Shown here piece after piece: positions 11,723 through 20,607 of a stretch of 34,410 bases of DNA; within the stretch, counting starts at the first letter, position 1, and every line of letters begins with the position of its first letter. Position numbers and translations under genes: made by a program. This stretch comes from Desulfobacterales bacterium (GTDB taxonomy: Bacteria; Desulfobacterota; Desulfobacteria; Desulfobacterales; UBA11574): contig JAAXQD010000119.1 in assembly GCA_012974475.1 (NCBI GenBank), positions 1 through 34,410 on the forward strand. The letters run 5' to 3'. A model generated the notes under the pieces. That model was not told the origin of the DNA, did not search any database, and was given only the letters and a program-made list of their open reading frames with translations.

Positions 11723-12259
11723 GTGATGATTCGAATGGGAAAACTTATTTTCGGTTTTATGGCCGTCGGACTCTTTCTGATGCAACCGGCAAATCCGGCA
11801 TTCGCCAAAAACAAATTTGAAAAAGAGGTCGTAAAAGAGCAGGAAGCCGTCAAGTTGGTCCGTGAAGTTCAGCAGGGCGGTTACGACGTGATCACAGCCA
11901 AGGAGCTTAAAGGCCTGATCGATTCCGGCAAGGATATTCTTATTATCGACACCATGCCCTATGATGCCAGTTATAAAAAAACGCATGTCCCTGGTGCAAA
12001 GCAGTTTTTGTTTCCCATTCCCGAGATGAAAACGTGGGATACCAAAGAGACGGATGGCAAAACCCTTGACGATTTCAAGGCGCTGCTCGGTCCCGACATG
12101 TCAAAAACCATCGTCATCTACTGCGGATTCGTCAAATGTACCCGAAGCCACAATGGGGCCATGTGGGCCCAGAAGCTGGGCTACAAAAATGTTTTCCGAT
12201 TTCCCGGGGGAATTTTTGCCTGGAAAGGTGCCAAATACCCCATAGAAAAAGTAAAATAA
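11723..12259 (+). CDS. Exported rhodanese-like domain protein
   Basis: Signal peptide ending PAFA; IIDTMP, HVPGA, active-site loop YCGFVKCTRS, GGIFAW. Confidence 0.88.
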   Translation: MMIRMGKLIFGFMAVGLFLMQPANPAFAKNKFEKEVVKEQEAVKLVREVQQGGYDVITAKELKGLIDSGKDILIIDTMPYDASYKKTHVPGAKQFLFPIPEMKTWDTKETDGKTLDDFKALLGPDMSKTIVIYCGFVKCTRSHNGAMWAQKLGYKNVFRFPGGIFAWKGAKYPIEKVK

Positions 12260-12556: not shown

Positions 12557-13615
12557 GTGAAACTGAACCTTTTCAAAAAGCCGACCCTGCTAAGTCTGTC
12601 AAAAACGTGCGGTTGAGCCGCAAAAATCGACCCGGTCGGGCTCGGAAATTTGTTGGCAGGTCTACCCAAAAACGAAGATCCCAACTTGTTGGTGGGCTAT
12701 GAAACCAGTGATGATGCCGGCATTTATCGATTGACCGACGACCTCGCCGTCATTATGACTGCCGATTATATTACGCCACCGGTAAACGATCCGTATGTAT
12801 TCGGCCAGATTGCGGCCGCCAACGCCATCAGCGATGTTTATGCCATGGGCGGTCGTCCTATCGCCTGCCTTAATCTGGTCAGTTTTCCCGCTAAGAAGCT
12901 GCCTTTTGATGTCCTGCACCAAATCGTCGCCGGCGCTTTAAGCAAGATTACCGAAGCAGGAGCGGTGCTGGCAGGGGGGCATTCCATCGAAGACGAAGAA
13001 CCCAAATTCGGGTTGGCGGTGACCGGCGTCGTACATCCCGACAAGTTCTGGACCAACCGGGGCGCCCGGCCAGGAGATGTGTTGATTCTCACCAAACCCA
13101 TCGGAAGCGGCGTACTGTTTAATGCCAATTTGAAACAATGGGTCTCCAAGAAGGCCATGGATGCCTGTGTGGCAGCCATTTCAACCCTCAACCGAACCGC
13201 TGCTGAGGTCATGGCGGGTTTCGACATACATGCCGCAACCGATGTAACCGGATTCGGACTGTCCGGACACGGCTTTGAAATGGCCAAAGCTTCTGAAGTC
13301 TGTTTGGAAATCGAAGTTTCCCGTTTGCCGATCATGGACGAGGCACTGGCGGTCTATAAAAAAGGGATGAGAACCAGCGTAAATGCTGACAACAGAAAGA
13401 TGGTGGAAAAATATATGCGGTTTGAGGCCGATCTCCCCATCTGGCACCAAGAGATTGTATTTGACCCGCAAACCAGCGGCGGCCTTTTAGTGGCGCTATC
13501 CGAAGCCCAGGGAGAAGACCTCATCAACGCCTTAGGCGCAGCAGGCGTGGCCGCGGCAAAAATCATCGGTCGCATTCGTGAAGTGAAAGCGGCGACGTAT
13601 CTGGTATTTAAGTAA
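12557..13615 (+). CDS. selD: Selenophosphate synthetase SelD, selenocysteine-containing (UGA at codon 20)
   Basis: GTG 12557 after GGAG, in frame with ORF 12650: MKLNLFKKPTLLSLSKTCG-TGA(12614-12616)-AAKIDP; SDDAGIY, ANAISDVYAMGG, GGHS, TDVTGFG, DPQTSGGLL. Confidence 0.95.
12627..12645 (+). promoter_or_regulatory. Bacterial SECIS element of selD
   Basis: TCGA-CCC [GGTC] GGG-(C)-TCGG; the stem starts 10 nt after UGA and a G-leading apical loop starts 17 nt after UGA. Confidence 0.75.
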
Positions 13616-19875: not shown

Positions 19876-20607
19876 ATGAAATTTAAAATCTGTGCTGCTT
19901 TCTTTCTACTGTTCTGCTTGGTTTTTTCCCAAACCAGTGCTTTTGGCGCCTCGAAACAAACGCCTCAATCACCATCCGCCGTTGTACCGGAAAGCCGTTA
20001 CACCTTTGCTCAAGTTGCAGACGGCACTGAAGTAACCCATGGTTTTGTTATACAAAACAAAGGAACCGCTCTGCTGAAGATCGAGAGCGTCAAAACCGGG
20101 TGAGGGTGCACCGCTGTCTCATACCCGAGACAGATCCCTGCCGGCGGCGAGGGAAAGGTTGTCATCAAAGTCGATACATCGGGCTACGGTGGAAGAACGA
20201 TGACCAAAACCATAACGGTCAAAACCAATGCACCCGACCAACCCGTACTTCATCTGATCGTTTCTGGTAATGTTGAAAACTTTGTTACCATCGTCCCGAA
20301 GCGGGCCACTCTCCGCGGTTTTCCCGGCGATAAAATAATATCAACCGTAAAGATCATACCTGAAAAAAAGTATCCGTTCAGAATTTCCGACGTCACGGCA
20401 ATTAATGGCAAATACATCCGTTATACACTGGAAAAAAATAAATCTTCAGAAAATATGGAATATGTTCTGACGGTTGAAAACCTGAAAAATGATAAGGGCC
20501 GCTATTTTGATACCATCAAATTAACAACGGACAGCAAAATACGGCCGGAGATCAAAATCTATGTTTACGGTTACATCTCAGACCGGCCGACAAACCCCAA
20601 AAAATAA
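19876..20607 (+). CDS. Exported DUF1573-type (Ig-like) protein with in-frame UGA; putative selenoprotein (U-G-C motif), 243 aa
   Basis: ORFs 19876..20103 and 20200..20607 share a frame. The 32 intervening codons are open (GCTAVSYPRQIPAGGEGKVVIKVDTSGYGGRT) and complete the DUF1573 pattern F.I.N.G...L.I..V...CGCT......I.PG. TGA 20101-20103 occupies the first Cys position. Confidence 0.8.
20114..20133 (+). promoter_or_regulatory. SECIS-like hairpin after the DUF1573 UGA (non-canonical loop)
   Basis: CTGTCTC [ATACCC] GAGACAG, a perfect 7-bp stem starting 10 nt after UGA, with the loop 17 nt after UGA. Confidence 0.55.

Follow-up and report, generated by a model that had tools for sequence, protein, structure and literature searches.

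In bacteria, the signal that allows an in-frame UGA codon to be read as selenocysteine (Sec) lies within the coding region itself, as a hairpin just 3′ of the codon—the selenocysteine insertion sequence (SECIS), for which the element of Escherichia coli fdhF serves as the paradigm. The published consensus (the bSECIS model, Zhang and Gladyshev 2005, in the summary given by the legend to Figure 2 of a 2026 review; PMC13188914) calls for an apical loop of 3–9 nucleotides (nt) on a stem of 4–16 base pairs (bp), at least one G within the first two positions of the loop, a distance of 16–37 nt between UGA and loop, and a free energy no higher than -7.5 kcal/mol; the same review allows that some putative bacterial SECIS elements fall outside it. 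In structural terms, Itoh et al. 2015 (PMC4605307) place the conserved G ~20 nt downstream of the UGA, and their model of ribosome-bound SelB has ~57 Å between the loop and the A-site codon. Amongst selenoprotein families, OS_HP2 (‘Olavius symbiont’s hypothetical protein 2’) was predicted by Zhang and Gladyshev 2007 (PMC1976440), and is listed as pfam07610, motif UxC, in both an ocean survey (PMC2398784) and the 2026 review; the legend to Figure 5 of the 2007 paper gives predicted SECIS elements for five of its six new families, OS_HP2 being the one missing. Here, we describe the signal that follows the UGA of an OS_HP2 gene in a Desulfobacterales bacterium (contig JAAXQD010000119.1 of assembly GCA_012974475.1, positions 1 to 34,410; hereafter ‘the window’, meaning the whole of this 34,410-nt stretch): not one hairpin but two in tandem, both under RNA-level selection specific to TGA-bearing genes. 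The signal of this gene lies outside the published consensus model.

The product of the gene is 243 amino acids long, with Sec at residue 76 in the motif T-G-U-G-C-T, and has an N-terminus that, judged by eye, resembles a signal peptide. Residues 37–134 match the NCBIfam model NF041425 (OS_HP2_seleno, ‘OS_HP2 family (seleno)protein’; 144.4 bits versus a cut-off of 100), with the UGA inside the match, and residues 39–133 match Pfam DUF1573 (1.3e-19; 70.5 bits versus 26.1). The UGA occupies the first Cys of a C-x-C motif (thus U-x-C), a position held by Cys in aligned homologues; the best explanation for it is that of a selenocysteine codon in an exported OS_HP2/DUF1573 protein. Set beside the family as outlined in PMC1976440, this is a plain member—U-G-C motif, deltaproteobacterial lineage—with no difference at the level of the protein. 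As the protein family is already known and catalogued, interest is confined to the RNA signal.

Table 1. Coordinates of the features discussed, numbered from the first base of the window, with the SECIS loops of the other selenoprotein genes of the genome; distances run from the UGA to the start of the loop
Feature	Coordinates	Strand	Loop and distance from UGA	Details
OS_HP2/DUF1573 selenoprotein gene	19876..20607	+		732 bases; ATG 19876, TAA 20605-20607; translation with TGA=U open throughout
In-frame UGA, best explained as selenocysteine	20101..20103	+		homologous codon TGA in 117/164 sites
Single-stranded spacer, UGA to hairpin 1	20104..20113	+		10 nt, GGGUGCACCG
Hairpin 1	20114..20133	+	AUACCC (20121-20126), G-less; 17 nt	perfect 7-bp stem, CUGUCUC 20114-20120 / GAGACAG 20127-20133
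Hairpin 2	20135..20154	+	GGC (20143-20145); 39 nt	UCCCU-GCC[GGC]GGC-G-AGGGA; lower stem 20135-20139/20150-20154, upper stem 20140-20142/20146-20148, bulged G 20149
selD (selenophosphate synthetase)	12557..13615	+		TIGR00476, 368.4 bits, one TGA inside match; start codon uncertain
SelD SECIS	12627..12646		GGUC (12634-12637); 17 nt	UGA 12614-12616, then 10 nt; UCGACCC, loop, GGG(C)UCGG
HdrA, three copies			AGGU; 22 nt	
HmcF/DsrK-like, two proteins			GGUC, 22 nt; GGU, 23 nt	
VhuD-like			GGA; 23 nt	
[NiFe] hydrogenase large subunit			GGGC; 28 nt	
Thioredoxin-like lipoprotein			AGGU; 34 nt	

Folding the 60 nt from the UGA with RNAfold returns precisely hairpins 1 and 2 (-23.2 kcal/mol), separated by a linker of a single A (20134). 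Taken alone, hairpin 1 folds at -10.7 kcal/mol (z -5.45; none of 200 dinucleotide shuffles as good) and hairpin 2 at -11.0 kcal/mol, its triloop being closed by a C-G pair and its one-base bulge lying on the 3′ side; energy evaluation of the bare hairpins gives -9.4 and -9.5 kcal/mol, respectively. When upstream sequence is included, the minimum free energy (MFE) fold instead pairs the UGA region with the 5′ strand and loop of hairpin 1 (-27.9 kcal/mol, z -0.91). All of the coordinates and pairings given by an earlier, sequence-only reading—the perfect 7-bp stem, the AUACCC loop, the second hairpin at 39 nt—can be read directly from the sequence. The likeness it drew between hairpin 1 and the SECIS of selD, which serves us as the canonical reference within the window, holds for the 10-nt spacing, the 7-bp stem and the loop at 17 nt, although the seven pairs in selD (folded together with 30 relatives) require a bulged C and one G-U pair. 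Rfam covariance models find no match at gathering scores anywhere in the window and, over 20060–20200 with E up to 10, just two chance-level hits to unrelated families.

For comparison across homologues, six-frame searches with the OS_HP2 profile covered 61 genomes of the same order, 57 of which scored above cut-off, and 401 phylum-sampled genomes, 147 of which gave a match at E <=1e-15. The homologue set was assembled from all 67 order-level places with E <=1e-12, the first 60 new phylum-level rows with TGA and the first 40 phylum-level rows without a stop (~20 further TGA rows, the remaining no-stop rows and 39 other phylum matches being left out); after dropping L075, L076 and L135, which do not align over the site, 164 sites remained. 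At the position of the UGA these have TGA in 117, TGC or TGT in 46 and TCT in one, the last two groups making up the 47 Cys/Ser forms. Hairpins were scored as present or absent in minimum-energy folds of bases 4–62, counted from the U of the UGA.

The two groups differ. Hairpin 1 is present in 108/117 TGA forms versus 21/47 Cys/Ser forms, hairpin 2 in 111/117 versus 21/47, and both together in 106/117 versus 10/47; mean MFE is -9.34 versus -4.17 in the hairpin 1 window and -10.81 versus -6.85 in that of hairpin 2, at equal GC content (0.60 and 0.61). To remove the effect of protein sequence, each sequence was resampled 100 times with synonymous codons: hairpin 1 then gives a mean z of -2.51 in TGA forms (80/117 below -2, none above 0) and -0.62 in Cys forms, whilst hairpin 2 gives -1.85 (50/117 below -2) and -0.13. 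Codon choice in the stem of hairpin 2 follows suit, Gly17 being GGA in 85/109 TGA but 8/31 Cys forms, and Pro12 CCU in 66/98 but 6/19. Cys paralogues within the same genomes are without the hairpins, as seen for a pair of tandem paralogues on one contig, where the TGA copy (L069, G041:C37:15924-16208) has both hairpins and the Cys copy (L073, G041:C37:14970-15254) has neither. Both hairpins are thus under RNA-level selection specific to TGA-bearing genes, with hairpin 2—the one that carries a G-led loop—selected as specifically as hairpin 1. One homologue (L052:409-477, G019:C178) has TCT (Ser) at the Sec/Cys position, yet retains a hairpin-1-like stem of 6 bp, UUCCUU/AAGGGA; this looks like a recent loss of Sec.

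Covariation supports the pairing of hairpin 1. Across the 56 distinct order-level TGA sequences, 90.9% of alignment cells pair, a value that sliding the partners lowers to 56.5% at most, and double-sided changes are found at 5 of the 7 pairs of hairpin 1, with stem variants such as GUCUC/GAGAC, GCCUU/AAGGC, GCCGG/CCGGC and CGUCGA/UCGACG; the covariation score is not equalled in any of 500 shuffles. Hairpin 1 is also kept in more distant clades, where its register is shifted by one base, and a single fixed register imposed on all clades consequently fails. The G-less hairpin of the sequence-only reading is therefore not a chance feature: it is kept, with compensatory changes, in TGA homologues and is largely lost from those with Cys, contrary to the patterns which that reading had named as refuting it. 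Not conserved is a pairing, likewise suggested there, of UGAG with CUCA that would hide the UGA itself: it exists in the window, but all four pairs can form in just 32/117 TGA homologues and we have rejected it. A candidate pseudoknot between GGGU, just past the UGA, and ACCC of the hairpin 1 loop was dismissed by reasoning only—the loop is variable, there is no linker on the 3′ side, and these bases would sit inside the ribosome with the UGA in the A site.

Measured against the consensus, both window hairpins lie within the limits for size (loop of 6 nt and stem of 7 bp in hairpin 1; 3 nt and 8 bp plus one bulge in hairpin 2) and for energy (-10.7 and -11.0 kcal/mol). Hairpin 1 departs from it solely in lacking the G and hairpin 2 solely in its spacing, at 39 nt; no one hairpin combines a correctly placed G with a correct distance. 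The same is seen throughout the family: amongst TGA homologues a G is found at loop position one or two in 8/108 instances of hairpin 1 but 108/111 of hairpin 2, the loops of the latter being mainly GGC, GGA or GGU. The loop of hairpin 1 is unconstrained: its first base, a position open to synonymous change, is U in 24, A in 16, C in 10 and G in 8 of 58. (The sequence-only reading had stated the rule as a G at the very start of the loop; a G is indeed demanded, but the consensus as given in PMC13188914 accepts it in either of the first two positions.) Hairpin 2 shares with described SECIS elements its apex, G-G-N closed by a base pair, as well as its small loop and a stem of 4–16 bp, and hairpin 1 shares their position; what sets the OS_HP2 signal apart is that two hairpins are selected, not one.

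To put numbers on this we re-implemented the consensus, rather than running bSECISearch, with the energy limit set at -4 to -5 kcal/mol such that 31/31 selD elements pass. Between 34 and 39 of the 117 OS_HP2 TGA forms pass this calibrated filter, a figure that rises to 113 to 114 when the spacing limit is relaxed to 42 nt. With the literal limit of -7.5 kcal/mol applied to the bare hairpin, 18/117 pass, or 103/117 with relaxed spacing; applied in this way the limit is too strict, as it also rejects 4/9 of the genuine SECIS elements in the genome and 17/31 selD elements.

In the 106 homologues with both hairpins, the base of hairpin 1 most commonly lies 9 to 11 nt from the UGA (71/106) and the linker between the hairpins is 0–2 nt in 79/106; hairpin 1 is an uninterrupted helix in 93/117 TGA forms, its length ranging between 11 and 27 nt, with register and loop varying just as widely. 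Hairpin 2 is found at 37–42 nt, with a mode of 39, and has a bulge on its 3′ side in 78/117, like the SECIS of selD (bulged in 16/31 of the selD elements). Subtracting the length of hairpin 1 from the spacing of hairpin 2 yields a mean of 18.9 nt (standard deviation 3.1, n=106).

The two-hairpin layout recurs in a second, unrelated selenoprotein family: a thioredoxin-like selenolipoprotein with the motif U-P-Y-C, encoded elsewhere in the same genome (L211:1-861, + strand; G000:C48:1711-2571; homologues L217-L246), whose nearest model, NF041057, scores 83.5 bits, under its cut-off of 190. Here, a G-led hairpin (CUCGAGC-AGGU-GCUCGAG) at 34 nt is preceded by a smaller one. The distal hairpin is present in 26/26 TGA homologues, always at 34 nt, with AGGU as its loop in 23 homologues and AGUU in the other 3; the proximal hairpin, which starts ~11 nt past the UGA, is present in 24/26, its stems covarying and its loops differing in many ways in sequence. 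Resampled with synonymous codons, the proximal hairpin has a z of -2.14 and the distal one of -3.75, and the Gln codon that contributes the loop G is CAG in 26/26, against 50 CAG and 19 CAA elsewhere in the same windows. Effective spacing is again shared, at 19.4 nt after subtraction of the proximal hairpin. The families differ in that the thioredoxin-like distal loop falls just within the consensus range and that of OS_HP2 outside it, so that standard tools would accept the former and overlook the proximal hairpin altogether. Three thioredoxin-like Cys forms that are close to TGA forms retain much of the structure.

The OS_HP2 arrangement is also replicated in sequences gathered in another way. 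A degenerate DNA pattern (UGA-Gly-Cys, 8 codons, I-P-x-G-G-E-G) scanned through species-representative genomes returned at least 120 stretches. The 80 matches listed are nearly all from Desulfobacterales or Thermodesulfobacteriota, with one from Thermoanaerobaculia, and include two cultured strains, Desulfobacter curvatus DSM 3379 (L320) and Desulfobotulus alkaliphilus ASO4-4 (L289). They provide 70 new distinct sequences, of which 63 have hairpin 1, 66 have hairpin 2 and 61 have the two together. The first or second base of the loop is a G in 9/63 for hairpin 1 and 66/66 for hairpin 2; because the pattern presupposes the peptide encoded at hairpin 2, what these sequences tell us concerns mainly hairpin 1.

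How might two such hairpins work? We propose that they form a bipartite SECIS, in which hairpin 2 docks SelB and hairpin 1 is a looped-out spacer or helper, and put the probability of this at roughly 60%; the choice of hairpin 2 as the SelB-binding partner is made by analogy with described elements, and the action of hairpin 1 by compaction is likewise inferred. Hairpin 2 would be the element bound by the C-terminal winged-helix domains of SelB; its distance from the UGA, about twice the usual one, would arise because no codons in the vicinity other than those of the conserved I-P-P/A-G-G-E-G-K motif can code for a hairpin of this kind. Starting 10 nt past the UGA, hairpin 1 would stand at the mRNA entrance whilst the UGA is in the A site, as a stem whose loop is free in sequence; its folding would remove ~20 nt and so shorten the path between UGA and hairpin 2 loop to ~19 nt, the canonical value. 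A functional analogue may be found in the eukaryotic Sec redefinition element (SRE; for example that of SEPN1, Howard et al. 2005, via PMC4561486), a stem-loop adjacent to the UGA that aids recoding and is separate from the SECIS to which the factor binds; being eukaryotic, with its SECIS in the 3′ untranslated region, it implies no homology. Hairpin 1 may likewise slow the ribosome or disfavour the action of release factor, as the SRE does. To our knowledge, a compaction role has never been proposed for the SRE.

Several observations weigh against this proposal. The assignment of SelB to hairpin 2 is made by analogy, and the geometry of hairpin 1 (10 nt, 7 bp, loop at 17 nt) is identical to that of the selD SECIS, so that a spacer role must take this position to be the natural one for any structure at the mRNA entrance. 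The UGA-to-SECIS distance is reported to be tight in E. coli, and we found no precedent in the literature for a looped-out spacer. Hairpin 2 on the window sequence alone does not stand out from chance (z -1.03; 26/200 shuffles as good); the Gs of its loop are the first and second positions of Gly codons in the conserved P-G-G motif, and their conservation is therefore forced by the protein. With 93.4% of cells paired in the order-level set, it is nearly invariant and shows a double-sided change at just 1 of 7 pairs; most of its pairs never or barely vary and are uninformative either way. Some form of hairpin 2 also folds in 21/47 Cys/Ser homologues. Tested on 57 phylum-level sequences, one fixed structure scores weakly, with 71.0% paired versus 63.3% at a slide of -1, because the register of hairpin 1 drifts between clades. 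Finally, the homologues are related, and counts across them overstate their independence.

One alternative is the main one of the sequence-only reading, in which SelB binds hairpin 1 as the SECIS, of a G-less class read by shape or by other bases and missed by standard predictors, whilst hairpin 2 is either accessory or just a consequence of the codons for P-P-G-G-E-G. Hairpin 1 lies in exactly the canonical place with selD geometry, has the stronger covariation (5/7 pairs) and the stronger resampling signal (mean z -2.51), and putative bacterial SECIS elements outside the consensus have been noted (PMC13188914). A signal outside the consensus is indeed what we find, but its identification with a SelB contact in hairpin 1 seems unlikely given that the synonymous first base of its loop takes all four letters, that the same SelB serves nine other genes which all have G-led loops, and that the Sec-specific selection on hairpin 2 would be left unexplained. 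The thioredoxin-like family points the same way, its proximal hairpin being equally variable and its distal AGGU loop fixed even at a synonymous site. Unlikely also, in our view, is a single composite structure (for example, two coaxially stacked hairpins) that SelB or the ribosome would recognise whole, neither part being a mere spacer. The short linker (0–2 nt in 79/106), the joint presence of the hairpins in 106/117 and the same pairing of hairpins in a second family all speak for it; the wide variation of hairpin 1 in register, length (11–27 nt) and loop is hard to square with a specific fold, and no tertiary covariation was seen, none having been looked for.

That the UGA is not (or not only) a Sec codon—the hairpins instead promoting SelB-independent readthrough, insertion of Cys, or the production of two isoforms, a 75-residue form and the full-length protein—we hold to be very improbable. 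A stable hairpin just 3′ of a stop codon can stimulate readthrough in other systems, and the eukaryotic SRE promotes Sec-independent readthrough without a SECIS (PMC4561486). Against this, the UGA replaces the first Cys of a conserved C-G-C in a family curated as a selenoprotein; the genome has selB and nine further selenoprotein genes, amongst them selD, which carries a Sec codon itself; and termination at the UGA would leave a signal peptide and half of an immunoglobulin-like domain. The second decoder, or Cys-inserting tRNA, raised by the sequence-only reading finds no support: selB has one match above its family cut-off in the genome (G000:C61:1437-3329; the other five matches being other GTPases, far below), neither this 89%-complete assembly nor relatives yielded an additional tRNA(UCA), and exactly one tRNA-Sec scores above the Rfam threshold in each of three of the five relatives searched, one of the same genus included. 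We give least credence of all to the idea that the hairpins have no function and simply follow from protein sequence, codon usage and common descent. The codons for P-P-G-G-E-G are C-rich and then G-rich, and so prone to pair, some hairpin folds in each of the two regions in 21/47 Cys/Ser forms, and the sequences compared share descent; yet the folds of TGA forms are far stronger than those of their synonymous resamples, an excess that Cys forms lack, hairpin 1 shows compensatory double changes, Cys paralogues in the same genomes do without the hairpins, and GC content is equal in both groups.

The wider Sec repertoire of the genome provides the backdrop for these arguments. All nine of its other selenoprotein genes (selD and eight more; Table 1) have G-led loops—GGUC, AGGU, GGU, GGA or GGGC—at 17–34 nt; the GGC triloop of hairpin 2 is of the type found in these elements, and the loop of hairpin 1 is not. 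They were gathered with the help of a codon-usage scan for read-through UGAs, which gave 9,967 candidates, 2,133 of them above threshold and too noisy to use, and 118 once sites covered by long open reading frames in other frames had been removed; 10 candidates were then chosen by eye, of which 8 have an NCBIfam match that extends across the UGA, confirming them, and the other 2 match nothing. No tRNA with the anticodon UCA is found in the assembly, which is 89% complete (34 tRNAs found), the best sub-threshold hits to the Rfam tRNA-Sec model being tRNA-Leu, tRNA-Ser and tRNA-Arg; as the assembly is incomplete and the genome has at least 10 Sec-containing genes, the gene for tRNA-Sec, selC, presumably lies in an unassembled part. 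The [NiFe] hydrogenase large subunit (L212:1-1716, - strand; G000:C241:6474-8189; hydrogenase-2-like, 873.6 bits) carries the in-frame UGA within its N-terminal nickel motif (R-I-C-G-V-U), where the C-terminal one is usual; as reported in PMC13582414 (2026), an N-terminal CXXU motif was previously known from just two Group 1 sequences and one of Group 3. A further frame of 162 codons (L215:1-492, - strand; G000:C76:13874-14365) contains an in-frame UGA (…G-A-V-G-G-U-M-M-G…), with good coding scores of 0.30 and 0.43 either side and no NCBIfam match, and is possibly an uncatalogued selenoprotein, or two genes.

Within the window, the OS_HP2 gene has priA upstream and a HAD hydrolase gene that begins one base past its stop codon, followed by polA. 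The selD gene, with a Sec codon of its own, lies 7.5 kb upstream, directly preceded by a gene for a rhodanese-domain protein (11723-12259). In several relatives, too, selD and the OS_HP2 gene are found ~6–9 kb apart on one contig (G002:C19, G013:C3, G025:C120, G032:C236, G004:C53 and G030:C8), a proximity that may represent conserved synteny.

Neither a two-hairpin or spacer-hairpin SECIS in bacteria nor DUF1573 with selenocysteine in this layout is described in the full-text literature searched (subscription journals lying outside its coverage). Whether the OS_HP2 and thioredoxin-like signals exemplify a distinct and recurrent class of bacterial SECIS—tandem hairpins, the proximal one free in sequence and looping out ~20 nt, the SelB hairpin at 34–42 nt from the UGA—is to our minds evenly poised. 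Selenoprotein finders rely on one G-led hairpin at 16–37 nt past the UGA, and a family most of whose members break this rule is either invisible to them or accepted by homology alone; such a class, if real, would explain part of those ‘SECIS elements that do not fit the consensus’. Should a folded spacer indeed stretch the permitted distance, prediction models ought to score path length instead of linear distance, the set of codons constrained by the SECIS would change, and the engineering of Sec into recombinant proteins could move the SelB site off the residues adjacent to Sec. The idea is testable, as this form of the gene occurs in two cultured strains. For the families themselves, a tandem signal would free the 8–10 codons after Sec from having to encode a G-led loop, and a Cys codon could become Sec wherever a peptide motif with C-rich and G-rich codons lies within ~14 codons of it.

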